A stretch of DNA of 64,000 nucleotides from Candidatus Kapaibacterium sp. (GTDB taxonomy: Bacteria; Bacteroidota; Ignavibacteria; Kapaibacteriales; UBA2268), in NCBI GenBank assembly GCA_963665665.1, contig OY762428.1:4928001-4992000 (forward strand). The letters are read 5' to 3'. The notes beneath the pieces were generated by a model. It worked only from the letters and a program-made list of their open reading frames with translations. It had not been told where the DNA came from and did not search any database. This document shows, piece after piece, positions 15,211 through 41,200 of the stretch. Position 1 is the first letter of the stretch; every line of letters begins with the position of its first letter. The position numbers were made by a program, and so were the translations under genes.

Positions 15211-15212
15211 GC

Positions 15213-17890: not shown

Positions 17891-18058
17891 TGGGTGTTCT
17901 CCGTGAACCCACGGCAAACTTAAAAGGGAAGCATGTGAAAATCATGCACGGTTGCGCCGCTGTAACGGGGGACGAGCTTTTCAGGCCGAGAGGCAGCCAC
18001 TGCGGAAACGCGGGAAGGCGAAAAGCAAGAACGATCCCGGAGTCAGAAGACCTGCCCA
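17891..18058 (+). promoter_or_regulatory. Cobalamin (AdoCbl) riboswitch
   Basis: AAAAGGGAA, GCCGCTGTAA, GCCACTG...GGGAAGG and GAGTCAGAAGACCTGCC (B12-box) elements; upstream of a TonB-receptor operon. Confidence 0.93.
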
Positions 18059-18208
18059 TGAATCTCATTGGCCGCCATTTGTGGCGACATCCGCGCTAAC
18101 GGATGCAGTGAAGAGATTTGATGATAAAACACTCGCACATCACTCCCGCTCATTGTACATACTCGTTAGCAAACAGTTTTGTTTGTTGAATTATCTTTTT
18201 CGAGGTTT

Positions 18209-19555
18209 ATGATGAAAAAACTTTTACTTACTTTCGCGATAGCTTTTGTTTTTTGCATGGCAAATGTTTCCGCACAGCTTAACGAGGTAATGGAAATTCA
18301 GGTTGGCACACAACCTATGGCTATTATTACCGACGAGGCAAACCAGTGCTATCATGTTTTCTGTAACGGCCAGGATATTAACTGGGACGGCATCCAGGAT
18401 GAGGGAGACGAAACACAGTCATGGTGGAAAATCCCTTTCTTACCTGAAAATTTTGACCCCGGAGCAGCTATAAAAGCAGAAAAAGTAAGGGATTTTGATT
18501 TCATGCGCATGGTATTTCCGTTCCGTCCGGGTTATAATGCTGAAGAAGGAATTGTCTATCTTTCTGATATTTCCGGCGCTACAAAGGCATATAATACAAG
18601 TAACGGCGAGTTGATAAATGATCTGAATCTGCCAACAGATTTATCCTCAACTGATGGTTTAAACAATTTTATCTTTGGAACTTCTACAACAGCTGAAGGC
18701 GACGGCATTCTTGAGATAATTGACGGAGTCGGTGGCCTTATAGAAAGTTACGAGGTCAACAAGAATCCATTCATGACATTGGCGTTTGAATACAATGGCA
18801 AAATTCATATAGTAGTGGCAAGCTATGGCGATTACAACTCTGATGATTCTGCTGTTGAAATTTTTATTGAAGATAATGTTGGTTTTACATTGGCTGCTAA
18901 GTTTGAACATTTGGGCAATACGCTGAACTATCTTACATTTTTTGAAGGTAAAATTGCCGCTGTTTCTAATGGATCGCACAAAATTGATATTATTGATTTG
19001 GAATCACTAACTATCGAAAAATCCATCAATTTGCCAACAACAGGTTATGATGGCCCGCGGGAATGCGTTTACTCTAAGGCTCACGAGCTTTTATTCGTTT
19101 CGGCTTACGATGGAAATATTTATTCTGTAAACCCTGAAACAGGAGAAGTTCTTACAGCAGTTGAAGCAGGCTGCAAAACGGAAGGCATGGCTTTCCAAAG
19201 CCCCAAATATGTGCTTGGAACGGCTATTATGGAAAAAGGCGCTTATACTTATATGGACAAGATAATCGTTTACGAAGTGAAATATACATCCGTTGATGAT
19301 AATAATTATAACTACAGCGTTTATCCGCTTCCGGCAATCAACGCTATTACAATTCAGTTCAATGAAGATATTATTTCTGCAGATAATCTCGTTGTTTACA
19401 CTCAGAACGGTGGCAAAGTAAATATCAACAACTCGTCAATAAATGCAAATAAACTAAACCTTGAACTGGCAAATTCCATTTCAAACGGTTTATACATTGT
19501 TAGTTTTACATCAAACGGTGTTGAATATAAAGTTCCGTTTGTTGTTAATAAATAA
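18209..19555 (+). CDS. Secreted YncE/BtuG-like beta-propeller with T9SS C-terminal domain; putative cobalamin-binding protein
   Basis: Signal peptide MMKKLLLTFAIAF...SAQ; propeller-like repeats; CTD VYPLPA...GLYIV; first gene after the B12 riboswitch; GAGG RBS before ATG 18209. Confidence 0.7.
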   Translation: MMKKLLLTFAIAFVFCMANVSAQLNEVMEIQVGTQPMAIITDEANQCYHVFCNGQDINWDGIQDEGDETQSWWKIPFLPENFDPGAAIKAEKVRDFDFMRMVFPFRPGYNAEEGIVYLSDISGATKAYNTSNGELINDLNLPTDLSSTDGLNNFIFGTSTTAEGDGILEIIDGVGGLIESYEVNKNPFMTLAFEYNGKIHIVVASYGDYNSDDSAVEIFIEDNVGFTLAAKFEHLGNTLNYLTFFEGKIAAVSNGSHKIDIIDLESLTIEKSINLPTTGYDGPRECVYSKAHELLFVSAYDGNIYSVNPETGEVLTAVEAGCKTEGMAFQSPKYVLGTAIMEKGAYTYMDKIIVYEVKYTSVDDNNYNYSVYPLPAINAITIQFNEDIISADNLVVYTQNGGKVNINNSSINANKLNLELANSISNGLYIVSFTSNGVEYKVPFVVNK

Positions 19556-24585: not shown

Positions 24586-24620
24586 AAAAAAGCAGGGAAC
24601 ATGAATATTTGTTCCCTGCT
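24586..24620 (-). terminator. Intrinsic terminator downstream of the CxxG peptide gene
   Basis: agcagggaaca/tgttccctgct stem with a T-run on the minus strand. Confidence 0.7.
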
Positions 24621-24714
24621 AAATCTCTAAATTTTATCGGATGATTCATTATAAATATTATAAAGAAAAGTTGCTTATGTAAAAATCATCTACTCAAAAT
24701 AAAAATAATTTACA

Positions 24715-25017
24715 TTATGAAGCACTGTTTCCCGTGTCGCATGCCGTTCCATAAGTTGAACCATCACCGCAACCCAAAAAGCCTGCTGCGCTGAAACCAG
24801 TATTACAATATCCGGAGTTGGGACTACTGCCAGGATCGCAACGACTCAAAGAGACAAAACCGCCTGTTTCACAATATCCGCCGGCAGAGTTCCCAATATC
24901 ACAGGCGTCTGAAGCTCCGCCCGAACTTGCTGCAGAACCGGTAGAACAATATCCAATTGCCGTTTCAGAATCAAAGCTGCGAAGTTTAGGCGCCGAGTAG
25001 GATAGTATTTTTCTTAT
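24715..25017 (-). CDS. Putative RiPP precursor peptide: YxxPxL leader plus seven CxxG repeats
   Basis: (I/M)RKILSYSAPKLRSFDSETAIG leader, then CSTG, CDIG, CETG, CDPG, CNTG, CGDG, CDTG in a Gly/Ser-rich core; GGAG lies 5 nt upstream of an ATA codon (25017-25015). Confidence 0.68.
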   Translation of the reverse strand: MRKILSYSAPKLRSFDSETAIGYCSTGSAASSGGASDACDIGNSAGGYCETGGFVSLSRCDPGSSPNSGYCNTGFSAAGFLGCGDGSTYGTACDTGNSAS

Positions 25018-25176
25018 AAATACTCCATTATTTATTACTAAAACCAATGTATTATAAACAATAATCTGCAATTAAATTTTACTTAATTATGCATAAGCTT
25101 CATAAACCAGATAGTCTTTATCCCTATTTTTCAGATATACCTTTTATCTTGTGTTAAAAATATATTATTTGATATA

Positions 25177-28100
25177 TTAGAAAGCCATTGCTTTCTTTAT
25201 TTCAGCCAGGAACTGTTCCAGAACTAATGGCTTGTCAATTCTTCCAACGAAACCATAGTCCTGATAATTTGAAACTACCGGTTTGTCAAAATGCCCGCTG
25301 AATACTAATGCCCTGACATTATGATCAATTTTCCTTAGTTGCCTGAGTACATCAAGGCCATCAACGTTATACCCGATCAAAGTAAGATCCAGAATAACCA
25401 GGTCGTATTTTCTGCTGTCAAGAGAATTTTGATATTCCTCGACAAGTAATTCCGGATCAGAAAATCCAGTTATTGAAATATTATATTCAAGAAACAGATC
25501 TTCAATATTTTCAAGAATTTCCCTATTATCATCAAGCATCAGGATGGTAACTAAATTTTTGAATTTAAAATTCTTAGAATCTTTTAAAATGTTGTCTTTT
25601 TCAGGAACATTGACAGGTAAAAAGATTGAAAATGTAGTTCCATTGCCAGGTGTTGAATAGACCTTAATTTCACCATTATGTTTTTTGATAATATTATATA
25701 CTGTTGCTAATCCGAGTCCGTGCCCGCCTTCTTTTGTTGTAAAAAACGGCGTAAAAATTTCATTTATTTTATCGGAGGGAATACCAATACCTGTATCTTC
25801 AATATCAATTTGTATGCTATTGCCGTTCAATAACTGATCTTTTCCTTCGTTGATGAGAGACCTGATATAGATATTTCCACCTTTGGGCATAGCCTGGCTG
25901 GCATTAAGTAATAGATTGGTCAGTACCTCATTTATCCTCTTGGCATCAAGAAGTATTTTTGGAATATCATTATAAAGTTCAAATTTCGGTACTATACTTG
26001 TTCCTGTTAATGCCATTTCTGTAGCCTCCAGGATAATTGAATTAATATCAACTGGCTCAAGAACAGGCTGGTCGGTTTTGGAGAATGTCTGGAACCTTGT
26101 TGCAAGTGCTGATGCCTGATCAATAGCTCTGATTATCTTTGCAAGGTGTTTTTCAGACTTTTCAGGCCTGGCTTTTGCGATTTCGGCGCTCAATGCCATT
26201 GCAGTCAGTATGTTTTTAAAGTTATGTGCTATCCCGCCAGCTATTACACCGAGTGATTCCATTTTCGATATTCTTTGGAGTTCTTCTTCATGACGCTTCT
26301 GGTTCAACACCGAATTGAGCATGGGAGAAATATAACTACAGATATCCTCCAAAAAATTCAGATGTTTATCATCAAAACCATTCTTGATGTCAGCAACACC
26401 TATCTGGCCGATCAATTTTTCCCTATAAATTATGGGTACTGCTAAAGCATTCCTTAGCTGAACGTGTCCATCCGGTAGTGATAATCCTTCATTTTGGAAA
26501 ATGCTTTTTTTCGTTTTCAAACTTTCTCCCCAAATTCCACCCCAAACTTCAATTGGAAATTCAATTGATTTGTCAGACATCCGGCATTTATCCCAGATAT
26601 CGGAAGTCATTGACGGGCAAATAAGACTTTGCTGCTCGGTTATATAGCCAAAGTATCCGAATTTACAGTTTAGAAAATCTAAAACAATTTTCAGGATCTT
26701 GTTGAAGACCATTTCTTCTGATCTCAGTACGAATGCATTAGAAATTTTATTTTTGAGAAGGATTTCATCTCTGGATCGTCTGATTTCTTCTTCAGCTTTT
26801 ATGCGGTCGCTAATATCCTGAACAGTACCAACAATATTTGTAATATTTCCTTTATCATCCTGTACGGGCTTACCTATGATATGGAGAGTTTTCTGTTTAC
26901 CAGAAGGCATCACTGCCATTAAGTCCAGATCATAGTCCCTGGCATTCTGTAACGCTTCGATAACGGCAGTTTCCAATCTCTTTGCATCTTCTTCAGTATG
27001 CAATTTCATAATTTCCTCATAGCCCGGAACATCAAGTTCTGGCTCACGCTCGTATATTCTGAAAACTTCATCAGACCAGTAGGAACGCTGCTCTGCCACG
27101 ACCCAATCTACATGACCAAGTTTACCAATTTTTTCGGCTCGCTGAAGTTTCTGTTCTCTTTCCTGCAGCGCATCCTGTGTTTTTTTCAAATCTGTAATAT
27201 CCGTAGAGAAAACAATTATTCCTATAATATTCTCATTTTCATCTTTTACCGGAACTTTATCGGTTAGAAGCCATTTGACAGAACCATCAGACGTAGGAAG
27301 CTGCTCAATATATCCCATTTTGGGAACGCCGCTTTCCAATACTTCTTTATCGTCCTCATAATATTGATCAGCCATGGTGGGGTAAATCTCTGCTGATGGC
27401 TTTCCTTCGATCTCTTCCTTTGGAAGATTGGTCATCTTGGCTACTGTATCGGTGATTTTAATAATATTGTTTTCTGTATCTTTATAAATAATAAAAGATG
27501 GGTCATTGTCTAATAGTATTTTCTGATCGCTGAGCAATTTTTTCATTTTGCTTTCTGCATTCTTGCTATCAGTAATATCTCTGGAAATTACAACTGTTCT
27601 TTTTTCATCTTCAGAATACTGATAAACTCTTCCTTTCGACTCAATATACCTATATGAGCCATCCTTATGTAAGAATCTCCAGACATCTTCACTTACACCT
27701 GAATTATTTGTAAGTTTCTCATATTTTTTTAAACTCGCTTCAAGATCTTCAGGGTGTATTAAATCACTTACCGGCTTTCCTAATAAATCATCAGGTTCAT
27801 ATCCTAATACTTCTTTGTAATTTTGGCTAAGATAGGTATAATTTCCATTTATATCAATTTCACAGATTAAATCATTAATATTATCAACCAGCAGTCTATA
27901 TTGTTGTTCACTTTCTTTCAGCTTTTCTTCTGCTTTTTTTCTTTCGGTAATATCCATAATGATTGAATGTAGCATATCTTTTCCTGCGTATTTCACATTA
28001 GATGAATAGACAGACACATCTCTGACGGAACCATCTGAAAGTTTGTGCTTAAACTCCATATTTTTGATGTCCCTTTTTCTTACCTTTTGTAGTTCCTTAT

Positions 28101-31100
28101 CAATCTCTACCTTGGAAAGTGTATTGATTTCAGAAATTTTCATTTTACGAAGTTCTGTCTGTGACCAGCCATAATATTCAGCAGCCGCTTCATTTGCGTC
28201 CACAATCCGGCCATCATCAGGATCAATCAGCAGTTTTACTGCACTATGTTTTTGGAATAAATTTCGAAATAATGTTTCACTTTCAATCAGCCGTGCTTGA
28301 ACTTTATTTTTCTCAGTAATATCATCTACAATAGCAAGACCAAGGGTAGGATTGCCTTCGGAATCGCGAATAGAACCTGCATGGAGCAGAACATCGATCA
28401 AGCTGCCGTCTTTTCTTATATATTTTTTTTGGATCTCAAATCTATTATTCATACCCTCAGTCATTTTATTGAACTTAGAGCGATTAGTAGTGTGATAATC
28501 AGGATGGGTAATATCAAAGAATGATAAATCAGATAATTCTTCTTTTGTGTAGCCCAGCATATTTTCATAAGCAGGATTTGTAAGTATGAAATTTCCTTCT
28601 AAATCATTGATACATATTCCAAGTGGAGAATTATCGATTAGCAGACGCAGTTTTTCTTCACTTTCTCGAATAATATTTTCCGCTTTTTTTCTTTCAGTTA
28701 TATCATGAATTACTCCGGAAACTTTGCTGGGATCACCCTTTTCGTCTTTTTCTAAAATTGCAATTGAGTGGACTATTCTGGACTCACCTTTAGTTTTGGT
28801 AATTATCTCAAATTCAAGATTATAAGGTTTATCCTTTTCTATCAAATCCATCAAGGCACGATGCACATTTTCTCTTTCCGGAATACATTCTTCTACTTCA
28901 TCTGTAGTAAAATTCTTTGCTCCGGGATCGAATCCATAGATTTTTTTTGCTTCATCAGACCCCCAGAAATGTGTGGTTTTCAGGTTGTATTCCCAATTTC
29001 CAACATGTCCAATCTCCTGAGCTGTTCTATAGCGTTGTTCATTTATTTTAATTTCTTCCTGTATTTTTCTGCGAGCAGTAATATCTTTTACAAAACCCAG
29101 AAAAAGAATATCAGAAAGCTTAACAGCATCTATTTCCCAGAAACGGTTCTTACCCGATTTAGTAACATAACCTATTTCAGCCTGGGCAAATCCCTCTGCC
29201 TTAACTTTTTTGAAATGCTGGATTCCTTTTTCTATCTCGGACTTCTGTAACAGATCGGGAATATATTTTTGAAGTAGTTCTTGTTCAGTATATCCCGTAA
29301 TATCGCAGGCGGCTTTGTTCACTTCAAGATATTTGCCGTTTTCATTGGCGATAAAAATTCCATCTGGAGCATTATCTATATAAGAACGGAATTTAGCTTC
29401 ACTTTCCCGAATTTTATCTTCAGCTTCTTTTCTTTCCGAAATATCAGTCAGTGACCCAACAATCGATATAACATTTCCATTTTCTGAAACCGGAGATTCT
29501 CTAACTTCCACAATGATCTTTTTACCATCTTTCCTTAGCATTTCAAGCTCATAAGTAGGTTGTCGCTTACCAGTTGATAATGCATTTTCCGTGAATTTTA
29601 TTGCTTTATCATTTATTGGATTATCAGTAATGAAATCTTTCCATTTCTGCATAACTTCTTCTGGTTCATATCCAAGTAGTTCTTTAACCTGCGGACTGAT
29701 GAAGGTTAATTCTCCAGCTGCATTGTGTATATAAAAAAGATTGGTGCTGTTTTCAATTATGTTTTTAAGTTTTGTTTCACTTTTCTTTAGTGCTTCTTCT
29801 GCTTTTTTTCTTTCTGTTATATTAATAAAATTAATGATGAAGTAATCGTCGATAAGCGGAAAAGCAGTTACTTCCAGAATTCTATCATATACATCAAAAT
29901 GCCGTTCGTAATTAATTGTTTTCGAGTCAGATATGACGTTACCGTATAAGTCCACCATCTGTTTTAAAGTTGCCTCATCAATAAGTTCAGATGCTTTTTT
30001 ACCTCTTAAGAGATCCAGATCAACCCCTGTATGAGCTTTTACTGATTCATTTAACTGTATGTGTATAAAATCTTCAAACTCATTTTTATCATTTTTTATC
30101 ATCTGGCAAATTGCGATGCCAAATGGTGATTTTTCATAAAGATTTCTAAATTTTTCTTCACTGGTTTTAATTTGTGCTTCCGCTTTCTTTTTTTCTGTAA
30201 TATCTGTACCTACAGCTGTTACAATTCCATTTTTATCTGCTTTTGTTCCAAACCAGGCAATCCATTTATATGTGCCATCTTTACATAAATAGCGATTTTC
30301 AAAGGAAACAACTTCCTTTCCTTTGATCTGCTCATCTTTTTCCTCTGCTGATTCATGCCGATCATCGGGATGAATCAATTCCATAAAGGGCGTTGAAGTA
30401 AATTCTTCAACTGAGTAACCTAAAAATTTTGTTACTGCTTTATTCGCTTCAATAAAATGCCCTGATTGTAAATCTGCTTTTGCTATGATACTCGGTGATA
30501 GATCAAACGTATTTTGCAGCCTCTCCTGGCTAAGTCTGAGTTTTTCTTCTGCTTGCTTCCGATCTGTAATATCTATCCATTGGCAAATCACATTTATCAA
30601 TTCACCATCGGCATTCTGAATTGGAAACAATGATACATCAATCCAGAAAGTTGCAGCCTCTTCAAGGCTTTCAACTTCTGATTTTTCACCTGACCATTCA
30701 ACTTCAAATCTTGCGGGTTCAAAATCTGTAATTACCTTTTTTATTTTTTCCTTTATATCGGGCTTGCTAAGGTTTTTATCATCAAATACATTGTACTTCC
30801 CAACAATTTGTTCATCACTCAGTTTTAATGTATCCCTTAACGCTTTATTAGTTCTTAAAACAGTTCCTTTTGCGTCCGCAATCCACATAGCAAATGGACT
30901 ATACTCCATTGAATTATTAAGAAATGTAGTATGTTTCTTGATCTCCTGTTCCGCTTTCTTACGATCGGTAATATCTGTCATGGTTCCAACCATTCTGACT
31001 GGATTTTTTTCAGAATCCCATTCCATGACTTTACCTTTGCCTTTCACCCATATCCAATTGCCGTCGCCAGTTCTTAAACGGTGGTCCATCTCCCAAAATT

Positions 31101-31563
31101 CTGTTTTGTTCTCTAAATGCAGGTTAAGAGTTTTTAATACTTCATCTCTATCATCCGGATGGAGTCGGGTTTTCCAAAGGTCAAATGAATTTGATTCTTC
31201 ATCAATATTTAAAATTTTTTTCCATGCATGACTGTAAAACACTTTGTTTTTGGAAATATTCCAGTCCCAAATGCCATCCTGAGATGCTTTCATTGCATAA
31301 TCGAAGCGCTGTTCGCTTTCTTTTAATTCTTTTTCATTAGCCAGTAATTGGCGGTTGGCAGCCCGTAATTGCTGTTCATTTGCCTGTAATTGCTGATTAG
31401 CAGCCCGTAATTGCTGTTCATTTGCCTGTAATTGCTGATTGGCAGCCCGTAATTGCTGTTCATTTGCTGCAAGCTGTTGATTGGCTGCTCTTAGCTGCTG
31501 CTCATTGGCTGACAACTGTTGATTGGCTGCTCGTAATTTAGAATCTGACGAATTTTTTCCCAT
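25177..31563 (-). CDS. Giant cytoplasmic hybrid histidine kinase: Gln-rich N-terminal repeat, 12 PAS/PAC, GAF, HisKA, HATPase, REC
   Basis: 12 DITERKxAE-type linkers; H-box KMESLGVIAGGIAHNFKN; NLLLNA, DTGIGI, PFFTTK, GHGLGL; receiver LDD...VILD...KP. Confidence 0.93.
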   Translation of the reverse strand: MGKNSSDSKLRAANQQLSANEQQLRAANQQLAANEQQLRAANQQLQANEQQLRAANQQLQANEQQLRAANRQLLANEKELKESEQRFDYAMKASQDGIWDWNISKNKVFYSHAWKKILNIDEESNSFDLWKTRLHPDDRDEVLKTLNLHLENKTEFWEMDHRLRTGDGNWIWVKGKGKVMEWDSEKNPVRMVGTMTDITDRKKAEQEIKKHTTFLNNSMEYSPFAMWIADAKGTVLRTNKALRDTLKLSDEQIVGKYNVFDDKNLSKPDIKEKIKKVITDFEPARFEVEWSGEKSEVESLEEAATFWIDVSLFPIQNADGELINVICQWIDITDRKQAEEKLRLSQERLQNTFDLSPSIIAKADLQSGHFIEANKAVTKFLGYSVEEFTSTPFMELIHPDDRHESAEEKDEQIKGKEVVSFENRYLCKDGTYKWIAWFGTKADKNGIVTAVGTDITEKKKAEAQIKTSEEKFRNLYEKSPFGIAICQMIKNDKNEFEDFIHIQLNESVKAHTGVDLDLLRGKKASELIDEATLKQMVDLYGNVISDSKTINYERHFDVYDRILEVTAFPLIDDYFIINFINITERKKAEEALKKSETKLKNIIENSTNLFYIHNAAGELTFISPQVKELLGYEPEEVMQKWKDFITDNPINDKAIKFTENALSTGKRQPTYELEMLRKDGKKIIVEVRESPVSENGNVISIVGSLTDISERKEAEDKIRESEAKFRSYIDNAPDGIFIANENGKYLEVNKAACDITGYTEQELLQKYIPDLLQKSEIEKGIQHFKKVKAEGFAQAEIGYVTKSGKNRFWEIDAVKLSDILFLGFVKDITARRKIQEEIKINEQRYRTAQEIGHVGNWEYNLKTTHFWGSDEAKKIYGFDPGAKNFTTDEVEECIPERENVHRALMDLIEKDKPYNLEFEIITKTKGESRIVHSIAILEKDEKGDPSKVSGVIHDITERKKAENIIRESEEKLRLLIDNSPLGICINDLEGNFILTNPAYENMLGYTKEELSDLSFFDITHPDYHTTNRSKFNKMTEGMNNRFEIQKKYIRKDGSLIDVLLHAGSIRDSEGNPTLGLAIVDDITEKNKVQARLIESETLFRNLFQKHSAVKLLIDPDDGRIVDANEAAAEYYGWSQTELRKMKISEINTLSKVEIDKELQKVRKRDIKNMEFKHKLSDGSVRDVSVYSSNVKYAGKDMLHSIIMDITERKKAEEKLKESEQQYRLLVDNINDLICEIDINGNYTYLSQNYKEVLGYEPDDLLGKPVSDLIHPEDLEASLKKYEKLTNNSGVSEDVWRFLHKDGSYRYIESKGRVYQYSEDEKRTVVISRDITDSKNAESKMKKLLSDQKILLDNDPSFIIYKDTENNIIKITDTVAKMTNLPKEEIEGKPSAEIYPTMADQYYEDDKEVLESGVPKMGYIEQLPTSDGSVKWLLTDKVPVKDENENIIGIIVFSTDITDLKKTQDALQEREQKLQRAEKIGKLGHVDWVVAEQRSYWSDEVFRIYEREPELDVPGYEEIMKLHTEEDAKRLETAVIEALQNARDYDLDLMAVMPSGKQKTLHIIGKPVQDDKGNITNIVGTVQDISDRIKAEEEIRRSRDEILLKNKISNAFVLRSEEMVFNKILKIVLDFLNCKFGYFGYITEQQSLICPSMTSDIWDKCRMSDKSIEFPIEVWGGIWGESLKTKKSIFQNEGLSLPDGHVQLRNALAVPIIYREKLIGQIGVADIKNGFDDKHLNFLEDICSYISPMLNSVLNQKRHEEELQRISKMESLGVIAGGIAHNFKNILTAMALSAEIAKARPEKSEKHLAKIIRAIDQASALATRFQTFSKTDQPVLEPVDINSIILEATEMALTGTSIVPKFELYNDIPKILLDAKRINEVLTNLLLNASQAMPKGGNIYIRSLINEGKDQLLNGNSIQIDIEDTGIGIPSDKINEIFTPFFTTKEGGHGLGLATVYNIIKKHNGEIKVYSTPGNGTTFSIFLPVNVPEKDNILKDSKNFKFKNLVTILMLDDNREILENIEDLFLEYNISITGFSDPELLVEEYQNSLDSRKYDLVILDLTLIGYNVDGLDVLRQLRKIDHNVRALVFSGHFDKPVVSNYQDYGFVGRIDKPLVLEQFLAEIKKAMAF
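31327..31536 (-). repeat. Five in-frame 42-nt repeats encoding LRAANQQLxANEQQ
   Basis: Residues ~10-79 of the kinase; the last copy is degenerate. Confidence 0.9.
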
Positions 31564-32283
31564 GATATCTTTTCAGTTTTTTTCTTAATTCCAACGTTTT
31601 AATAAAGTTAATTTTGAGTCCCCTTCAGTGTAGAAAATTTCACCGGTTTCAATATTGAAACGGACTGTTCTTCTTAAATACCCGCCTAATGATGTTGCGG
31701 AAACTTTTATTTTCAATTTTTTAAGTAGAGCAATAATAGAGATAGTGTTGTTTTTGCAGATTGTATCATCTGGTTTTTTTAGAACATTTCCTGCTCCAAT
31801 CAGGCATACTTCTATATTGGAAAATTCATCCCTGTTAATTGCCATAAATTGTAGTAATTTTTCAATTGCATCTTCGGCATATTTTGTCTTATTCTGATTT
31901 TCTGTAATAGGTGCTTTTCCAGGCAGCATAACATGAGCCATAGCACCAATTCGCTTTTCAATATTAAATGCAGCAATAACAATGCAGGAGCCAATCCCGT
32001 TGGAAATCAAAATATTATCAATATTGCCTTTTCCTACTTCTCCTGTCGATATGTTAATAATTTCTTTCATCTTTTTCAACTAACTTATAAAATTAATTCT
32101 TTTAGTAGTTTTTATTAATCATATCACCCTGCATGTTGAATTATAGACAGAATATAAGAAAATATTCTTAAACTTCCTTTCAAATTTTTAATACACCGGT
32201 CTGTCGATTTTCAATTTTGTAGAAAACATGGAATATCTTTTGGGAAATAAAAAAAATCAGGATTTTAACAATACAGGAAAATA
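31544..32283. repeat. ~740-bp direct duplication, copy 1 (upstream region + cheD + first codons of the sensor gene)
   Basis: Near-identical to 37401-38139 (offset ~5857). Confidence 0.92.
31585..32070 (-). CDS. cheD: CheD-family glutamine deamidase (copy 1)
   Basis: GIGSCIV catalytic Cys, AMAHVMLP catalytic His, KYAEDAI, LGGYLRRTVRF; 21 nt upstream of the kinase. Confidence 0.88.
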   Translation of the reverse strand: MKEIINISTGEVGKGNIDNILISNGIGSCIVIAAFNIEKRIGAMAHVMLPGKAPITENQNKTKYAEDAIEKLLQFMAINRDEFSNIEVCLIGAGNVLKKPDDTICKNNTISIIALLKKLKIKVSATSLGGYLRRTVRFNIETGEIFYTEGDSKLTLLKRWN

Positions 32284-32609
32284 CGGGTTAGTAGCGGATA
32301 AAGCCGGAAAATGTTGTACTGAATAAGGTGAAGAGTCTGTTCTTCAGGATTTTATCATAGAAACAAGTGTATTCTTTATTTCGATTCTGCCACAGCCGAA
32401 GAATTTTGTTCTTTCCCGGGGGCTTGAAAACGCATAATTTGGAGAAATTAATCCCTGAATATAATTGAATTTCAGCGATCCGGATCATATTCCTGTCGAA
32501 TTTTTACTTATTTCCCATCCGTACTCGTAATTGCCTGATATTATTGATATTAATATCATTGACACATCCTTCTGAAACGATTTTTTACAGCCAAAATCCC
32601 TTTTTCTGA

Positions 32610-32808
32610 GCCTTCCGAGCGTTCCCCCGTGCCTTCCGAGCGTTCCCTCGTGCTTTCCGAGCGTTCCCCCGACCCTGCCGAGCGTTCCCCCGTGCCTGCC
32701 GAGCGTTCCCCCGTCCTTTCCGAGCGTTCCCTCGTGCTTTCCGAGCGTTCCCCCGACCCTGCCGAGCGTTCCCCCGTGCCTGCCGAGCGTTCCCCTGAGC
32801 TTTCCGAG
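32610..32808. repeat. GC-rich tandem array of nine 21-nt units plus a partial unit (core ccgagcgttcccc)
   Basis: Counted directly; an 84-nt higher-order pattern is visible. Confidence 0.92.
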
Positions 32809-33208
32809 ACACTTTTTCAGGTAAAATTTTACTCAGAAAAGACATAGTTTCACTTTTTTGATATAGAATTTCGTTCTATTAGTCAGTTCGTTCCCCTCGA
32901 TCAATTGATGTTTTAATGGGGAAGTAGCCCAATTCGCTATGGCGATGAAAATATTCAGTTCAAAAATATTGAAGTTTGCTATGCCCGGCAAACTTAATGA
33001 TCATTTTGCACAGAATTTCAATCGGATGAGGGTAGAGATAACTAAGTCACAATATGTATCAGGTTTCGGAGAGTATAATCTTGCAATACAAGCTTTAGTC
33101 CCCGATGTTTGATACTGTACCGATTTAAATGTTAGATAAAGTTAACCCGGGGACTATTATCTTAAACCAGTCCGCGGATTTATTTCTTTTTAAGTTGTAA
33201 GTTATCAC

Positions 33209-33259
33209 TTACTTCTACTCAATCTTTGCGGACGGCTTGCTTGAAATATCATAAGTAAC
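33209..33259 (-). pseudogene. Decayed 51-nt copy of the guaA 3' end (att-like scar)
   Basis: Minus strand reads [15 protein letters not shown] versus gua[17 protein letters not shown]; 44/51 nt identical to 51717-51767. Confidence 0.8.
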
Positions 33260-33328
33260 GCAGCTGATAGCGCTGTTTTCAGTATTTATAAATAATTTGA
33301 ATGAATCTTCATATAAATATTATTTTGA

Positions 33329-36300
33329 TCATTCGTCAGGAATCCAATATTTTGCTTTTTTACCAAATTTTTCAAGTAGTCTGTTTATCTCCTTTTTTAA
33401 TTCGATCATTTTCAACTCCCTGTCCACAGATGCTTTATTGAATATTTCCAATTGGGACATCCTGTTTTTTAATTTTTGTTCAGCTGTCTTACGTTCAGTT
33501 AATAATCTTGATAGTACTAAGTTGCTGTAGCTTTGCGCAGAAATCAATCTGGCAAATTCTGAGAAAAATCTAATTGCACTTTCAACAGTAGTTCTGCTAT
33601 ATTTGGGCACCTTCTTAACTGCTTCAAGATAGCTGTCTTCATCATACCCATATTTTTTTGCCTGATCTCGAAAAAGTTTAAAATCAAGTATCTCATCAAC
33701 ATAGAAAAATTGTCCGAAGAAAATATTCCCAATATGCTGTCCGGCAATTTCAATCGGTGCAGCAGATTCCCACAGGTTATTTTTACATTTATATAGCTTA
33801 AACTCTCCTGAAGCTACACCGTGCGAAAGCAAGGTATCACTATCAATACAGTTTTTTTCTGATTCAGGATTTGTTCTGTGGAATTTTTTACAAATGTCTC
33901 TCCAACCAACACTGGCCAGAATATTTCCTTTTAAATCTGTAATACCAATGCACATCCCTGTCATATTATTCAAACTATCCATGAGTAACTGTATTGTTTC
34001 CATATCTAAAATATCCGAGAGTTCAAGGCTTGATATATCACCGTCCGGCCTGGTGATAGCGGATAGTTTTCTTCGTACAGATGCTTCGCTTTCAATTAAT
34101 GCATTTTTTGTCTCTACCTTTTCGGTAACATCAAAAACGATCCCTTCATATAGAATAATATTTCCTGAGGAATCCCTTCTGATTTTCGTTCTATCTTCTA
34201 CCCATTTAATTTCCCGATATTTTGTTATTATTCTGTATGGCTTGTGATAGAAAAAATCAGGCATATCAGGTTTACTGTGAGTAGCTAATTCAGTCGACAC
34301 CCTGTCAATGTCTTCTTTATGTATTAAGTCACCATATTTTACTTTGCCCGAAACAAAATCACTATCCGAATAGCCAAATAATTCGGAAACATTTTCAGTA
34401 ACAAATCCAACGGGCCAACCTTTTTCATTTTTCCATTGAAAGGCTACAACCGGACTACTGTTAATTATTGAATTAGCTTTTTGGAGAGCTTCTTCTGCTA
34501 ATTTTTGTTTTTGCTGAACTGCAATAACCGGAGCAATATAATCAGCTATTTCCTGTAATAAATTAAAATCATTATCAGTATAATCAGATGCCTTGTTTCC
34601 TACTGAAATCAAACCAATACTTTTATTTTGGTACACCAGTGGTATGGTTAGAAAGCGGTCAACAGGTAAATGCCCATCAGGAACCTTAAATGGTTTGTTG
34701 GAATATGCACCTTTTTTATTTAGCAGCCCCTTGCCCCAAATTGAATCACTCCAGGATTCTTTTGGGAAGACAATCGTTTTGTCCATCATTTTACATTCAT
34801 CCCAGATATCTTTTGTCATCGAGGGACAAACTAAGTCTCCAAAGTCATCTATATAACCAAATACACCATGTTTGCTATTCAATAATTGTAGTATAGCATC
34901 CAACACACAGGCATACAAATCATCTTCTTCTTTTGAAAGTAAGAGTTGTGAGATTTGACTTTTCGCATTGATTATTAGTTCCTGCTTTTTTCTATCTGTG
35001 ATATCTTTATAATCTTCAACAATCCCAATCAACCCACCTTGATCGTCTTTTAAAGGGGTTGTTGTCTTAATTGTAGGAATTTCTTTTCCATCTGGCCCTT
35101 TCTTGTAAATTTCAGTTTCAATCCTTTTATCTGGGTTTTCTTTGAATAACTTTATCGGGCAATCATCGGTATTACAGTTATCCCCCCAGAACACATCATA
35201 ACAATATTTTCCTAATATTTCCTCCTGGGTTAGTCCAACCATTTTACAGAAGGTATCATTCACTCTTTTGATCTTATAATCAGTTCCTACAACACGCATT
35301 CCATCAGCAGCAGTGTTAAATATTGTTTTTAATTCTTCTTCAGCTTTTATTCTTTCAGTTATGTTCTGTACAAAAGCGAAATAAAAAGAAATTTCGCCAT
35401 TCTCATCCAAACTACAATGGACTGTTAATTCAACAGGAATTCTTTCACCATTTTTTCTAATATATTCTTTTTCATATGTTACTGGCTGCCCGGTTTCGTG
35501 TAATTTTTTTAGTTCTCTGAATTCATGTTCCAGCCAATCACTGGGAGTTAATACATTATTCCAGTCAATTTTTTGAAGCTCCTCCTGAGTATAGCCTGTG
35601 ATATTCTGATACATTTTATTGCTTCTGCCAAGCCTGCCATCCGGATATCCAATTGCCACACCAACTGATGAATTATGCACAATATCTGACCAAAATTTAG
35701 AATCTTTATATGCAGAAATCAATTCTTGATTGGCAGCACGTAATTGCTGTTCATTTGCCTGTAATTGCTGATTGGCAGCACGTAATTCTTCTTCAGCTTT
35801 TATTTTTTCTGTTATGTCTTCAGAGTATATAAAAAAGGTTCTGGTTCCTTTAATTATGGTCCCAAGGCTTTTTATCGTCCGATAAATTCCTCTTTTGTCC
35901 TTGAACCGGTACGTGACTTCAGCTGACCCTGACTTTTCAGCTTCTTCAAAAGCTGATGATACTTTGGCCTGATCTTCCTCATGAATAAATGCAAATGAGT
36001 TTACTCCTAAAAGTTCCGTATCTGTATATCCTAATACGGTTTCAACAGAACTATTAATTTCGAGATAGTTTCCATTTTCATCGATATGTCCAAACATAAT
36101 AGGTGCATTGTCAAAAAGAGTTCTATAATGTGATTCCCTTTCTTTTATTGTTTCTTCAGCTTTTATTTTTTCAGTTATATCATAAGAATAAGCTGTTATC
36201 CCCAAAATATTGTTATTCTCATCATAAATAGGATTTATATGGATACTATAATACCTTTTTTGTTTATCTCCATAGACTTCTCTTGAAACAATGCTTTCTC

Positions 36301-37420
36301 CTTTAAATCCTTTATCATATATATGCCTGATGTTTTGTATATCCTTTTTGCTGGTCATAAATTCAAATATGCATTTCCCGAGTTCAGGAGTTTTGTTATA
36401 AGCTGCTTTCATCACATTCTTATGGGTATTATTGAAATATAAATAACGGTATTCCTTATCCAAGCTAAGAATGATCATATCCACAGGACTTTCCACACTT
36501 GCTCTTAAAAGTAGCTCTTTTCTTTTAAGTTCTTCTTCTGCTTCTTTCCACTCCGTTACATCCTGGAAAGTGCCTTTTAATTTTATAACTTTTCCATCTC
36601 TAATTTCCGGTTTGCATGTCGTACGAGTAATAAGATGTTTCCCTTTTGCAGTGATAAAGCGTAAAAAAAGGTCATAGGGCTCACCATTGGTTGATGCTTT
36701 TGTTAATGCTTCCTGCAGGATTGCCCGGTCCTCGTGATGGAAGTAGTTTATTGCTTCATCAATAGGGGGCTTGTGGCTTTTGTTTACTTGATGTATACGG
36801 TAGGTTTCATCCGACCAGGTTACTTCATTAGTACCGACATCTACTTCCCAGCCACCAACTCTTGCCATTTTACCTGTATTTTCAATCAGTTGGCTTTTTT
36901 TCTTTAGTTCTGTTTCGCTGGCTGCAAGCTGCTGATTGGCTGCTCTTAATTGCTGTTCACTGGCTATAAGCTTCTGGTTTGATTTCTCCAATGTAAATTG
37001 AGCATTTTTAATATCGGTTATTACCTGGAAGAATACGGAAATCTTATTCTCACTATAATATATATTTACATTATACCAGTTGCTATATGGTTCAATTCCA
37101 AAATAGGTTTCAAATTTAAAAGATATCTTTTCGTCGAAAGCTTTTCTGTAATTTGATTCAAAAACAGAGTTCTTAGCTTCAGGAAATGCCTGGAATAGGG
37201 GTTTGTTAATAACATCTTCTGCTGCTTTTCCAAGTAGATCTTCAGCAGCTTTATTAAAATATGTTACAAGCAAATCTTTTGTTTCCAGAACAAAAAAGCC
37301 ATCATTAATGCTTTCAAGAACTGATTTTAGTTGTTCATTAACAGCTTCTAATTGCTGTTCTTTAGCTTTGAGCTGTTGATTAGCTGCTAATAGCTGGTGT
37401 TCTGACGAATTTTTTCCCAT
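33329..37420 (-). CDS. Multi-sensor protein (7 PAS, GAF, PocR, Gln-rich linkers) with no kinase or other output domain
   Basis: PAS linkers; GAF with CPSMTKDIWDEC; PocR-like DMETIQLLMDSL...WRDICKKFHR...YKCKNNL...IFFGQF; ends RELKMIELKKEINRLL. Confidence 0.87.
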   Translation of the reverse strand: MGKNSSEHQLLAANQQLKAKEQQLEAVNEQLKSVLESINDGFFVLETKDLLVTYFNKAAEDLLGKAAEDVINKPLFQAFPEAKNSVFESNYRKAFDEKISFKFETYFGIEPYSNWYNVNIYYSENKISVFFQVITDIKNAQFTLEKSNQKLIASEQQLRAANQQLAASETELKKKSQLIENTGKMARVGGWEVDVGTNEVTWSDETYRIHQVNKSHKPPIDEAINYFHHEDRAILQEALTKASTNGEPYDLFLRFITAKGKHLITRTTCKPEIRDGKVIKLKGTFQDVTEWKEAEEELKRKELLLRASVESPVDMIILSLDKEYRYLYFNNTHKNVMKAAYNKTPELGKCIFEFMTSKKDIQNIRHIYDKGFKGESIVSREVYGDKQKRYYSIHINPIYDENNNILGITAYSYDITEKIKAEETIKERESHYRTLFDNAPIMFGHIDENGNYLEINSSVETVLGYTDTELLGVNSFAFIHEEDQAKVSSAFEEAEKSGSAEVTYRFKDKRGIYRTIKSLGTIIKGTRTFFIYSEDITEKIKAEEELRAANQQLQANEQQLRAANQELISAYKDSKFWSDIVHNSSVGVAIGYPDGRLGRSNKMYQNITGYTQEELQKIDWNNVLTPSDWLEHEFRELKKLHETGQPVTYEKEYIRKNGERIPVELTVHCSLDENGEISFYFAFVQNITERIKAEEELKTIFNTAADGMRVVGTDYKIKRVNDTFCKMVGLTQEEILGKYCYDVFWGDNCNTDDCPIKLFKENPDKRIETEIYKKGPDGKEIPTIKTTTPLKDDQGGLIGIVEDYKDITDRKKQELIINAKSQISQLLLSKEEDDLYACVLDAILQLLNSKHGVFGYIDDFGDLVCPSMTKDIWDECKMMDKTIVFPKESWSDSIWGKGLLNKKGAYSNKPFKVPDGHLPVDRFLTIPLVYQNKSIGLISVGNKASDYTDNDFNLLQEIADYIAPVIAVQQKQKLAEEALQKANSIINSSPVVAFQWKNEKGWPVGFVTENVSELFGYSDSDFVSGKVKYGDLIHKEDIDRVSTELATHSKPDMPDFFYHKPYRIITKYREIKWVEDRTKIRRDSSGNIILYEGIVFDVTEKVETKNALIESEASVRRKLSAITRPDGDISSLELSDILDMETIQLLMDSLNNMTGMCIGITDLKGNILASVGWRDICKKFHRTNPESEKNCIDSDTLLSHGVASGEFKLYKCKNNLWESAAPIEIAGQHIGNIFFGQFFYVDEILDFKLFRDQAKKYGYDEDSYLEAVKKVPKYSRTTVESAIRFFSEFARLISAQSYSNLVLSRLLTERKTAEQKLKNRMSQLEIFNKASVDRELKMIELKKEINRLLEKFGKKAKYWIPDE

Positions 37421-38139
37421 GATATCTTTTCAGTTTTTTTCTTAATTCCAACGTTTTAATAAAGTTAATTTTGAGTTCCCTTCAGTGTAGAAAATTTCAC
37501 CGGTTTCAATATTGAAACGGACTGTTCTTCTTAAATACCCGCCTAATGATGTTGCTGAAACTTTTATTTTCAATTTTTTAAGTAGAGCTATAATAGAGAG
37601 AACGTTGTTTTTGCAGATTGTATCATCTGTTTTTTTTAGAACATTTCCTGCTCCAATCAGGCATACTTCTATATTGGAAAATTCATCCATGTTAATTGCC
37701 ATAAATTGTAGTAATTTTTCAATTGCATCTTCGGCATATTTTGTCTTATTCTGATTTTCTGTAATAGGTGCTTTTCCCGGCAGCATAACATGAGCCATAG
37801 CACCAATTCGCTTTTTAATATTAAATGCAGCAATAACAATGCAGGAGCCAATCCCGTTGGAAATCAAAATATTATCAATATTGCCTTTTCCTACTTCTCC
37901 TGTTGATATGTTAATAATTTCTTTCATCTTTTCAACTAACTTATAAAATCAATTACTTAGTAGTTTTTTATTAATCATATCACCCCTACATGTTGAATTG
38001 TAGACAGAATATAAGAAAATATTCTTAAACTTCCTTTCAAATTTTAATACATTGGTCTGTCGATTTTCAATTTTTTGTAGAATACCAGGAATATCTTTTG
38101 AAAAATACAAAATCAGGATTTTAACAATAAAGGAAAATA
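37401..38139. repeat. ~740-bp direct duplication, copy 2
   Basis: Near-identical to 31544-32283. Confidence 0.92.
37442..37927 (-). CDS. cheD: CheD-family glutamine deamidase (copy 2)
   Basis: Same catalytic motifs; 6 aa differences from copy 1 over 161 aa; 21 nt upstream of the sensor gene. Confidence 0.88.
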   Translation of the reverse strand: MKEIINISTGEVGKGNIDNILISNGIGSCIVIAAFNIKKRIGAMAHVMLPGKAPITENQNKTKYAEDAIEKLLQFMAINMDEFSNIEVCLIGAGNVLKKTDDTICKNNVLSIIALLKKLKIKVSATSLGGYLRRTVRFNIETGEIFYTEGNSKLTLLKRWN

Positions 38140-38269
38140 ATGTATTTTAGGAATCAGATGAGAAATTCGAAATACTTATATACTTATTTCGATTCAAACA
38201 GATATAAGAATATAGTGTTTACAGTTTATACATTTATTGAATAATTGATAATTTTGTAAGGCGGCCTGC

Positions 38270-41200
38270 ATGAGAAAATTTTTTACTACTTTAATTGCAT
38301 TTCTTTTTTTTCTGATTATTACTGTTTCATTCGGACAAAATAGTCCAGATTTTTTTAAAACTATCCCCGTTATTGATGACAGTACGCCTGAATGGGCAAT
38401 GTTGATGTATTCTGACAATCCAAATGTTGCTGAAGTTGAGGACATGTACCGGGCATATTACAGGGATCACGAATTTGTAAAGACCATACACACCCAGAAT
38501 CATAAGTACTGGATAAGACTCGTAGAACCGCTTTTGGATCAAAATGGTTTTATCAGACAAAAAAGCAGTGCTGAGGAAGACTATGAGAATAAAAGACTGA
38601 AAGATAAGTTCAAAAAAAATCAATTATTGAGCATTGAAGGATCGGATAAGGGCTGGGTTGCTATGGGGCCTTTTGAAACTTTTAAAAAAAATACAGATCA
38701 GGCTATCTCGTGGCATAAAAATATCTATTCTATTGATCAGTCAGAATCCAATCCGGATATACTGATATGCGGAACCGAAGCCGGAGGCGTTTATAAAACA
38801 ACTGACAGAGCTGCTATCTGGTTTCTTATATCTAAGGGCGAGGTGTTTTCCGGTGGTAATTCAGCGGTGAAAATCCATCCGACCGACCCTGATAATTTTC
38901 TTGTCGCTTCAAACAAAAGAATTTATCAATCTTTGGATGGCGGTTTAACCTGGGTGGAAAGGCATTTTACAAGTGGAGCAGGGAATGAATTTCAATATTC
39001 TCCATCTGATCATAATATTATTTTCCATACTTCAACATCCGGACTATTCAAATCGACGGACGGCGGAACTACCTGGACTCAGATATATTCGGAAAGCTGC
39101 TGGGACATTGACTTCCATCCTTCTGACTTTTCGGTTGCATATTTATTAAAATCAAATACTACTGCGAAGAGATGCGAATTTTTCCGAAGTGACGACGGTG
39201 GTTCAAGCTGGGAGTTAAAAGACAATGGATACTACATTCCGGCTGATATTGAGAATGCTTCAATTTCGGGCGGCAAAATAGCTGTTACTCCCGCATCGGC
39301 CGACCTTGTTTATGTTTGCCTGATAGGTGCTTCAAAAACTGATGATAATGGCTGGATTGGAGTTTATAAAAGTACTGATAAAGGTGATGCCTGGACTAAT
39401 CCCTCGGGGCAGGACGGCGGGCCTTACGGACCGATAAATGGAAGCGATACTGTATGGAATGTAGCCGCATATAGCAGCGGCTATCACCAGGGATTTTTTA
39501 ATTTCGACCTGGAAGCGAGCCCTACGGATCCGGACAAAATATGGATTGCAACAATAAGATTAACTGAATCAAATGACGGTGGAAAATCTTTTACAGCAAT
39601 AGGTGCTGCAAATTCAGACCGTTTATCTGATTTTCATGCTGATGTTCAGGATATTGAAGTAAACGGTGATGAAATCTGGGTGGCTTCAGATGGCGGAGTA
39701 AATTATTCCAATGATGAATTAAATTCTCATAAGGCATTGAACAAAGGAATTCAGGCGGCACATTTCTGGGGATTCAACACAGGATGGAACGAAGATACTT
39801 TTACAGGCGGCAAATATCACGACGGTACAAGCGGCTGGTATGAGGGATATGGGGTAGGAAATGCATATAATATTGGCGGTGTTGAGGAAGCCTCCGGATA
39901 TGTGCATCCGATAGATAACAGAAAACTATTGTTCAGAGAGCATTATGCAAGTTCGAATACCATTGTATTGACTATTCCGACGATTTTTGGGGATAATGTA
40001 ATAAATCATTCCTCTTTGCCAATCAGGCCGAATGAATCTTATTTGGTAGCCGAGAGAAGCGGTTTATATTTTGATCCGAGATACTCAAACCATATTTATG
40101 TCGGGCTTGAAAACAAAGTATATAAATCTATCGACGGTGGAGTGAATTTCAATGTGATCTATACATTTCCCGATAATGACGGCATGGTATATGAAATGGA
40201 AATTTCACGGAGCAATCCGGATGTAATTTATGCCGTGTATAATCCTACCGGAGGTTATTGGGATCCTTGTGAAATATGGAAAACCACCGATGGAGGAATA
40301 AGCTGGAACAAAACTGCAGGAATTCCGGAAGGAAATAACAGAAGGTTTAGAATAACTATTAACCCGGAAGATGAAGATAATGTCTGGATTTGCACTCCCA
40401 GAGGCGGCAATGCCGGGAAAGTCAGTTCAACCACCGACGGCGGTGATACATGGACAGACAGAACAACTGACGTTTTAGATGGCGAGAACCTCACAGATAT
40501 TTTATACCAGGGCGGAACAAACGACATTGTTTATGTTGGATCGCAAAATGGGGTTTTCTATTGGGACGCAAATACAAGCAATTGGATAGATTACTCCACC
40601 GATCTGCCCCTGATTGCAAAATGCTTACAGATCAATCCATTTTACAGAGACGCTGAATTGCGCCTTGGAACAACCGGAAGAGGCGTTTGGGCAAGAAAGA
40701 TGGCGGATACCATGTTTTCTCCGATTGCCCAGCCGATAACTTATACTGATACTGTTTTTTGTTCAAGGGATACCGTAAAATTCGATTGTTATTCGATATT
40801 GAATCAAAATGAAGCAGAATGGGAATGGTCTTTTACACCTGATCCGTTTTTTATAAGTTCCGGGACGGCTAGAAATCCCAAAGTGGTTTTTGGCGCCGAA
40901 GGTGATTATGATGTAAGTTTAACTGTTACGGACGCAAATGGCAATTCAAGTACAAAAACTATTAAAAGTATGATAACTGTCCGCAACCTTTGCGAGCCGG
41001 ACTCGGTAGCCGGAAATGCTTTGAAAGTATCAGATGACGGGGATTATTTCAGTGCCGGCGATTTGAATTTGTCAAACATTACTCATTTCACTGCTACAGC
41101 CTGGATAAAACCGGCCGGAAAGCAGGACGGATTTGCAGGTATTGTTACAAATGGAGAGTGGTGTGCTCATTGTAATACACCAATCGGGTTGATATTCGAT

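Follow-up and report, generated by a model that had tools for sequence, protein, structure and literature searches.

A putative two-gene signalling module of a CheD-family deamidase and a cytoplasmic sensor with a Gln-encoded coiled coil, present twice in a Kapaibacterium genome

Covalent adaptation chemistry, namely the methylation and deamidation of Glu/Gln pairs on helices, counts as a hallmark of chemoreceptors. Only a few chemoreceptor sites are encoded as Gln, and in Escherichia coli receptors two sites mature once by deamidation, as part of a reversible methylation cycle. Here, we analysed a stretch of 64,000 nucleotides (nt) from Candidatus Kapaibacterium sp. (GenBank assembly GCA_963665665.1, contig OY762428.1, positions 4,928,001 to 4,992,000 of the forward strand), hereafter called the window. 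A gene for a CheD-family protein stands twice in the window directly before a gene for a large sensor, and both sensors, P0001 and P0003, carry coiled-coil heptads of the form A-x-x-Q-Q-L-x. Judged from their sequences, the two genes of each unit likely constitute a signalling module composed of a specialised CheD-family deamidase and a cytoplasmic sensor with a Gln-encoded coil.

The closest described relatives of such sensors are the methyl-accepting coil (MAC) proteins, which two reports present only together with CheB and CheR and as experimentally uncharacterised (PMC6943060; bioRxiv 10.1101/2022.05.07.491037). The two window sensors resemble MAC proteins in being cytoplasmic, in placing tandem small-x-x-[EQ][EQ]-x-x-small heptads ahead of PAS/kinase modules, in often having kinase function among their relatives, and in being coupled to a chemoreceptor-modifying enzyme outside the CheA/CheW pathway. 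As for CheD, the Bacillus subtilis enzyme deamidates receptor Gln residues and binds receptors at that site (PMC3513319; PMC7289035), and CheD in the CheC-CheD pair binds a helix mimicking the receptor site (PMC3513319). For the E. coli type of system, the encoded Gln is described as a neutral mimic of methyl-Glu, which CheB turns into Glu after synthesis (PMC7289035). A full-text literature search, with a scope that excluded Wuichet & Zhulin 2010, supplements and the MiST CheD classes, returned no published link between CheD and MAC-like or Gln-heptad sensors. MAC proteins, as portrayed in the two reports, hinted that adaptation chemistry extends to ordinary sensor kinases. New here is a second, chemically complementary branch, consisting of Gln-encoded coils and a dedicated CheD clade, found in several phyla and sometimes without any other che gene.

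Two cheD/sensor units of one design

The window contains two minus-strand units of the same design, each with a cheD gene, a 21-nt spacer after its stop codon and a large sensor open reading frame (ORF) (Table 1). The first-pass annotation, made from the letters of the window, had described two intact cheD genes, each 21 nt before a giant cytoplasmic PAS sensor, which the ORF layout, Pfam and hydropathy confirm. Both small genes exceed the Pfam CheD (PF03975) cut-off of 25 bits, and the GSC and AHVMLP motifs are present in the window cheD. P0004, encoded by the second copy, matches the Thermotoga maritima CheD (2f9z_C) in phmmer with E=3.3e-15. Its AlphaFold2 (AF2) model has a predicted local distance difference test score (pLDDT) of 92, and the top Foldseek match of this model is again 2f9z_C, with template modelling (TM) scores of 0.79/0.82. 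Cys29 and His46 of P0004 align with the Cys and His of 2f9z_C, which we take to be the catalytic residues of CheD, and both are invariant in 24/24 sequences of our alignment A1. The window enzyme therefore shares family, fold, Cys and His with the chemoreceptor CheDs of B. subtilis and T. maritima (2F9Z). P0004 falls far short of all nine NCBIfam CheD equivalog models (cut-offs 223-369 bits), the best score being 84 bits against a cut-off of 240.

P0001 is a hybrid sensor histidine kinase with an H-box, a HATPase_c domain (96.6 bits) and a receiver domain (REC, 49.1 bits). The H-box AHNFKN is visible despite a HisKA score of 24.0 bits, just below the cut-off of 26.9. Pfam revealed no kinase domain in P0003, no CheB or CheR domain in either sensor and no MCPsignal match in either, so neither is classed as a methyl-accepting chemotaxis protein (MCP). 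Unlike the substrates of chemoreceptor CheDs, the presumed substrate here thus lacks an MCP signalling domain. Neither sensor contains a 19-residue window with a Kyte-Doolittle mean >1.45, and for this reason both look cytoplasmic.

The N-terminus of P0001 holds four perfect LRAANQQLxANEQQ units followed by a degenerate fifth (LRAANRQLLANEKE), where five repeats had been annotated. At the DNA level, this coil is a 42-nt tandem repeat at 31333-31538 with 4.9 copies and 85% matches. P0003 bears the motif at its N-terminus and in two inter-PAS linkers, just as the annotation had placed it. Eight A-x-x-[EQ][EQ]-x-x-[A/S] sites occur in each sensor, and the tandem heptads of both follow the methylation-site pattern small-x-x-[EQ][EQ]-x-x-small, with Leu at the core and small residues (Ala, Ser, Asn) around an exposed Gln-Gln pair. 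They also fit a CheD site consensus, A/S-x-x-Q/E-Q/E-x-x-A/S, which Chao et al. reportedly gave in 2006, a further likeness to the chemoreceptor CheDs. Among the 13,279 six-frame ORFs of at least 80 amino acids (aa) in the 5.46-Mb genome, LRAANQQL is confined to P0001 and P0003. Single-sequence AF2 predicted residues 5-95 of P0001 as one helix, with a pLDDT of 93-98 over residues 11-80. A predicted complex of CheD and two chains of the 90-residue coil scored 0.01 against a mark of 0.32, which speaks neither for nor against binding.

The two units share a duplicated cassette with 92.6% identity across 816 nt (blastn), and the remainder of the two sensors is only 24-29% identical at the amino-acid level. 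Because the cassettes are alike but the rest of the sensors has diverged, the cheD cassette, including the first heptads, moved, or was converted, as a single unit before two differing sensors. The reading frame of cheD copy 1 opens with TTG; an in-frame ATG at 32070 yields the same N-terminus as copy 2 and is the probable start. A search for a decayed kinase domain downstream of P0003, by tblastn of P0001 against the 1.25-kb gap at 32080-33328, found nothing. Promoter and terminator counts in a scan of 24600-38400 were at or below the shuffled expectation.

The same gap between the units contains a 21-nt tandem repeat (32610-32808, 9.5 copies), overlapping an 86-aa ORF that reads (GNARxAR)n. 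The 12-base core of this repeat occurs 173 times in about 30 arrays genome-wide, many of them next to a conserved flanking sequence (...SFLSKILPEKVSRKA...). This dispersed repeat element may have mediated the duplication of the cassette.

No MCP, CheA, CheR, CheB or CheW gene was found inside the window, in agreement with the annotation; the nearest MCP, CheR, CheB and CheW matches lie about 86 kb away. The rest of the genome yields 8 MCPsignal, 5 CheR, 5 CheB and 8 CheW matches. A system with CheD as its sole modifying enzyme, as originally proposed, cannot be claimed for this genome because of the CheR and CheB matches elsewhere.

Table 1. Positions of the cheD/sensor units, their coils and the duplicated cassettes in the window
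Feature	Position	Strand	Description
P0001, hybrid sensor kinase	25177..31563	-	2128 aa; N-terminal Gln-coil, about 10 PAS, GAF, HisKA, HATPase_c, REC; Pfam
Kinase core and receiver of P0001	25198..26241	-	HisKA 1775-1832, HATPase_c 1873-1984, REC 2007-2122; Pfam
Gln-heptad coil of P0001	31363..31530	-	residues about 12-68; 8 A-x-x-Q-Q-x-x-A sites
cheD copy 1	31585..32079	-	164 aa from TTG; 96% identical to copy 2; Pfam CheD 58.9 bits
P0003, kinase-less sensor	33329..37420	-	1363 aa; Gln-coil, PAS x5, GAF, PAS, PocR, conserved C-terminal tail; Pfam
Gln-heptad coil 1 of P0003	37325..37387	-	residues 12-32: AANQQLKAKEQQLEAVNEQLK
Gln-heptad coil 2 of P0003	36923..36964	-	residues 153-166, inter-PAS linker: ASEQQLRAANQQLA
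Gln-heptad coil 3 of P0003	35717..35779	-	residues 548-568, inter-PAS linker: AANQQLQANEQQLRAANQELI
cheD copy 2, P0004	37442..37927	-	161 aa; Pfam CheD 60.6 bits; Gln-coil-associated CheD clade
Duplicated cassette, copy A	31472..32283		~200 nt upstream region, cheD, 21-nt spacer, first ~90 nt of sensor gene
Duplicated cassette, copy B	37329..38139		blastn partner of copy A

Linkage of CheD and Gln coils across genomes

A search of species-representative genomes with residues 1-85 of P0001 gave 51 motif loci, one of which (L108) is a weak and probably false match. The loci are labelled as Bacteroidota, Planctomycetota (six loci), Desulfobulbaceae, Spirochaetales, Omnitrophota, Fibrobacterota, Acidobacteriota, Chitinivibrionales and an Actinomycetes-labelled bin. 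By tblastn with P0004, cheD was found in 38 of the 51 loci. Under a uniform rule, which asks for an ORF no more than 400 nt from the cheD match and with at least two [ASTG]-x-x-QQ-[LMIVF]-x heptads, cheD adjoins a coil ORF in 37/51, nearly always directly upstream and on the same strand. This synteny persists down to 36-40% CheD identity in several phyla. For 12 of the 13 loci that lack cheD, the genome was searched with a clade profile. Ten of these genomes have a strong clade CheD elsewhere (E<=1.7e-30), another has a 40-residue CheD fragment at a contig end, and the last, a 2.6-Mb bin, has none. In one complete genome, a distance of only about 7 kb separates the coil gene from cheD, which is upstream of it.

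The circularity of a motif-first search is removed by a CheD-first search, for which metagenome contigs were searched with an alignment of 24 clade CheDs and the sole pattern G[AG][ML]AH[VIF]MLP. It yielded 80 loci with CheD identities from 56% to 26%, 71 of them long enough for placement in a tree. A Gln-coil ORF lies within 400 nt of 25/41 clade CheDs but of 0/30 che-clade CheDs, of which 24 adjoin CheA, CheW, CheB, CheR or MCP genes. For eleven of the other 16 clade CheDs, the sequence runs on for less than 600 nt downstream, and for five it does so for 0.9-5 kb. The association of the motif with an adjacent cheD, at which the first-pass annotation had aimed, is accordingly seen from both directions. 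In a phylum sample of 401 genomes (400 and the present one), 26 other genomes have a CheD match and none of the 26 has a coil within 1.5 kb, so that the module is rare even among members of its phylum.

Neighbour clustering of 62 coil-linked loci revealed no conserved third gene, and there was no CheC-like gene among the conserved neighbours. Single linkage had fused cheD and the sensors into the largest cluster, and the other clusters were antisense ORFs. Among 39 complete coil proteins, 31 contain PAS, 29 HATPase_c, 24 HisKA, 22 a receiver and 6 PocR domains; neither MCPsignal nor CheR nor CheB belongs to the 25 most frequent of the 35 families in these proteins. As in MAC proteins, the kinase output resides in the same protein in P0001 and in the 29 relatives with HATPase_c, whereas P0003 is without a kinase. 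The smallest relatives are reduced to little besides the coil and the kinase. The L070 protein has 30 heptads, HisKA_2 and HATPase_c but no Pfam sensor domain, and in the 459-aa L079 protein the second coil stops about 20 residues ahead of the phospho-acceptor His of the H-box. In such minimal proteins without a Pfam sensor domain, the coil is the only candidate input element.

The coil-linked CheDs form a clade separate from the che-operon CheDs, another difference from the chemoreceptor enzymes. In a maximum-likelihood tree of 130 CheD rows (IQ-TREE, short search), the separating branch has a Shimodaira-Hasegawa-like approximate likelihood ratio test (SH-aLRT) support of 91, and of 96 for an inner set of 85 rows. 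One side comprises 86 rows, with 64 coil-linked, 22 without a visible neighbour and 0 from che operons. The other side comprises 44 rows, namely 36 from che operons, 7 for which no che neighbour was found and a REC-CheD fusion from the present genome. Cys29 is kept in 82/84 clade members (the other two have gaps) and His46 in 84/84. Asn95 (83/84) and Arg133 (82/84) are clade-specific positions, at which che-type CheDs mostly carry other residues.

The REC-CheD fusion is the third CheD of this genome (G000:C1:4252627-4253598, outside the window; L001:865-1836). It comprises 324 aa with a CheB-like receiver at the N-terminus, and thus has the architecture of CheB with CheD in the place of the methylesterase. 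It lies outside a che operon, and its long branch in the tree falls among the che-type CheDs.

When 1.84 billion representatives were searched with a profile, 241 clusters matched at E<=1e-30 and 7297 at E<=1e-3. In nine of the best 150 clade representatives, CheD forms the N-terminus of a longer protein and is fused to HisKA/HATPase_c (4), to PAS arrays (3, one also with PocR), to PocR alone (1) or to a C-terminal region without a Pfam match (1). The four CheD-kinase fusions (P0128, P0133, P0138 and P0203) have 2-3 repeats of an LN-x-x-ED-[LM]-E helix motif between CheD and HisKA, which may represent an alternative CheD-associated coil. Seven CheDs, of which five come from small Bacteroidota genomes, make up a sub-clade in which cheD is flanked by a GAF-HisKA-HATPase kinase on one side and a receiver protein on the other; examples of this arrangement are L227 (G122:C1:1567000-1586500), L228, L229 and L140.

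P0003 ends with a conserved C-terminal tail (...VGRE..MIELKKEIN.LL..G..KY...; window 33329-33430, residues about 1330-1363, motif at residue 1334). The same tail ends the kinase-less coil sensors L094 and L105, the CheD-sensor fusions P0142, P0156, P0216 and P0250, and a further ORF of the present genome (G000:C1:4486335-4488518). The tail may be a real output or docking element of seemingly output-less sensors.

In tblastn with the proteins of this genome as queries, none of the 51 motif loci showed CheR, CheW, CheA, MCP or the CheB methylesterase, and the only matches were to receiver domains. A 208-aa CheB match in L070 turned out to be a REC-GerE regulator. As for whole genomes, CheR is present in 25 of the 30 other host genomes queried, often in long MAC1-like ORFs. 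The other five have no CheR, no MCPsignal and no CheB, four of these also lack CheW, and all five have a single CheD. To judge from the gene content of these five, the module can apparently exist without any other che gene. The proposal of a CheD-only system could hold for them but cannot be claimed for the present genome, and the expected absence of MCPs is likewise observed in the five but not here.

It could be argued that the coil is merely a structural, Gln-rich dimerisation helix, that CheD serves chemoreceptors elsewhere and that the gene order is inherited baggage. The 8 MCPs of the present genome could indeed be CheD substrates, and with descent of all clade members from one ancestor, the synteny could be partly historical. 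Such baggage would hardly survive down to the low CheD identities noted above in several phyla, would leave CheD without a chemoreceptor in the five genomes that have no MCP, and fits poorly with the existence of CheD-sensor fusions, with the copying of the cheD cassette and its first heptads as a unit before two different sensors, and with the perfect sorting of Gln and Glu coils described below. This explanation was already disfavoured, and we regard it as very improbable.

Gln-encoded and Glu-encoded coils and the possible action of CheD

In 50 proteins of other genomes that carry the motif, we counted the sites that follow one another at a spacing of 7 residues. The 431 sites comprise 415 Gln-Gln (QQ), 11 QE, 4 Glu-Glu (EE) and 1 EQ, numbers that overstate independence because the query was Gln-rich, yet the arrays reach far past the 8-residue seed. 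Position 0 is Ala in 405/431 sites and position 5 is Leu in 420/431, and the arrays span 5-30 heptads per protein. Glu occupies 20/862 site residues, with a three-fold preference for the second residue of the pair (15) over the first (5). For comparison, we inspected 20 CheR matches in long open frames, 19 of which, from 12 of the same genomes, have arrays; the 20th, at a contig end, has none. All 117 sites in the 19 CheR-containing, MAC1-like ORFs (117/117) are EE, on an [S/T/A]-x-N-EE-[L/M]-x scaffold. The CheB-CheR fusion of the present genome reads ...EELKSTNEEMQSTNEELQSTNEEL... after its CheR domain, and L-Q-S-T-N-E-E of the fusion stands in register with L-R-A-A-N-Q-Q, sharing the Leu core, with the amide pair replacing the acidic pair. 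The MAC1-like scaffold (L-Q-S-T-N-EE) is nearly identical to the one found here (L-x-[A/S]-x-N-QQ). The Gln coil therefore appears, at the level of sequence, to be the Gln-encoded counterpart of the Glu-Glu coil in CheB/CheR-fused MAC1-like proteins, which supports the earlier description of the system as MAC-like. The two versions sort perfectly with CheD on the one hand and CheB/CheR on the other. As a single base change converts Gln to Glu, the amide is under selection.

This CheB-CheR-coil-PAS protein is the only one of MAC1 type in the genome (G000:C1:3791888-3794527, outside the window; L014:613-3249), and an 834-aa ORF follows directly after it. A MAC1-type protein and the CheD/Gln-coil modules hence co-exist in one organism, and CheR-bearing long ORFs likewise occur in at least 12 other host genomes.

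Because both the encoded residue (Gln) and the enzyme (CheD) differ, the module does not belong to MAC1 or MAC2 as described. The sites of MAC1-like proteins are Glu-encoded, and CheB/CheR are fused in MAC1 and associated in MAC2, whereas here the partner is CheD, with CheB and CheR absent from all 51 loci and from five of the 30 genomes. We would rather class the module as a Gln-encoded, CheD-coupled sibling or relative of the MAC proteins. The module also differs from chemoreceptors modified by CheD in the 5-30 sites per protein, almost all of them Gln. In contrast to the deamidation by CheB in E. coli, nearly all sites here are Gln, and there may be no methylation cycle.

With moderate confidence, we propose that the adjacent CheD recognises the Gln heptads and reacts with them and that the change in charge from Gln to Glu shifts the conformation of the downstream PAS/kinase modules. 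CheD would dock on the heptads and hydrolyse Gln to Glu, so that each heptad of a chain could gain as many as two negative charges, with eight sites in the kinase and eight in the second sensor. With this charge, packing or register would change in the helix running to the next PAS domain or, in the minimal relatives, straight on into the phospho-acceptor helix, and the altered helix would shift the kinase output. Since the conversion is irreversible for each molecule, the state would be reset only by protein turnover or, where CheR is available, by methylation of the new Glu.

Several observations weigh against this proposal. CheD binding, deamidation and the effect on output are all inferred. 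The clade members share one origin, so many loci are not independent events, and the motif-first set is Gln-biased, as both the search patterns and the tblastn confirmation used a Gln-rich query. No full array was found beside L125, L129, L140, L146 and L148, the five clade loci with 0.9-5 kb of downstream flank, although the cut upstream ORF of L146 begins with Gln heptads. Under the uniform heptad rule, none of the nine CheD-sensor fusions has a Gln array, and none was found near the seven-member sub-clade, for three members of which about 8-10 kb on each side was examined. The fusions link the coil-type CheD clade physically to sensors, and they also show that CheD can accompany sensors that have no Gln array. 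The completeness of the five che-less genomes, one of which includes a 1-Mb contig, was not given. Finally, the near-total retention of Gln would be odd if CheD converted every site at once, which implies either that the conversion is regulated or slow or that CheD binds without much turnover.

Binding without much turnover is the main rival of our proposal. CheD would then be mainly a stoichiometric partner, whose binding to and release from the Gln heptads switches the sensor, and catalysis would be slow or secondary. Such a role has been proposed for B. subtilis CheD at chemoreceptors, where a CheD mutant with normal deamidase activity but weak binding is null-like, so that binding outweighs catalysis (PMC3513319; PMC7289035). 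The Gln-coil could hold CheD much as the receptor-mimicking helix does in the CheC-CheD pair. The retention of Gln would be expected if the amide serves recognition and is not consumed, and the fusion of CheD to sensors without Gln arrays suits a regulatory domain. Pure binders, however, usually lose the Cys and His that are kept almost without exception in this clade, and up to 30 tandem sites per protein exceed what docking needs. Nor is there a CheC-like competitor among the conserved neighbours; unlike in the CheC-CheD pair, the partner is the sensor itself. In sum, we judge a predominantly binding role unlikely.

The distribution of CheR bears on a further alternative, in which CheD generates Glu, and perhaps also acts as a methylesterase, and a CheR encoded elsewhere, either an orphan or the domain of a MAC1 protein, methylates it reversibly, as in a MAC system acting in trans. 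With CheR in 25/30 other host genomes and in the present one, a trans-acting CheR is possible in most of them, and its frequent occurrence in long MAC1-like ORFs is in line with such a division of labour. The present genome itself has 5 CheR and 5 CheB matches, including one CheB-CheR fusion, the heptad scaffold equals that of MAC1 coils, and the NCBIfam model for the T. maritima type is named "glutamine deamidase/glutamate methylesterase CheD". The loci themselves speak otherwise, as none of the 51 has a CheR within about 8 kb, and neither CheR nor CheB occurs in five of the 30 genomes. Directly encoded Glu should also be common if it were the working state, but it is rare at the site residues. 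Priming for reversible methylation is therefore rather doubtful, if somewhat less so than a mainly binding role.

A tentative extension of our proposal is that the module may operate as an irreversible "deamidation clock". In organisms with cheD as the sole chemotaxis-family gene, the only input of some kinases would be 12-30 Gln-Gln heptads (L070, L079), and the conversion of Gln to Glu would itself be the input. The stepwise gain of charge would record the age of the protein or the history of CheD activity and set the output, with resynthesis as the only reset. In the two window sensors, such a counter would gate or integrate up to ten PAS signals.

The module bears on the role of CheD outside chemotaxis, on whether the charge of a signalling helix suffices to set kinase output, and on irreversible protein deamidation as a bacterial timer or memory. 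Its partners are small, consisting of a 161-aa enzyme and either a 90-residue helix or a coil-kinase relative of roughly 460 aa, and the read-out is a mass shift.

Other features of the window

The GC content at 14001-16000 of the window is 0.51 as compared with about 0.36 for the rest, and this stretch contains the ORFs 14035-14745 and 15213-16127. Ribosomal RNA was considered as its cause and rejected, as the only Rfam match in the window was a cobalamin riboswitch. Neighbouring genes encode sorting domains of the type IX secretion system (T9SS), by which the organism can be assigned to the Bacteroidota. Downstream of the riboswitch (17875-18073, plus strand, 97 bits) are an ORF whose product has a T9SS sorting tail (18179-19555) and one for a TonB-dependent receptor (19673-21793).

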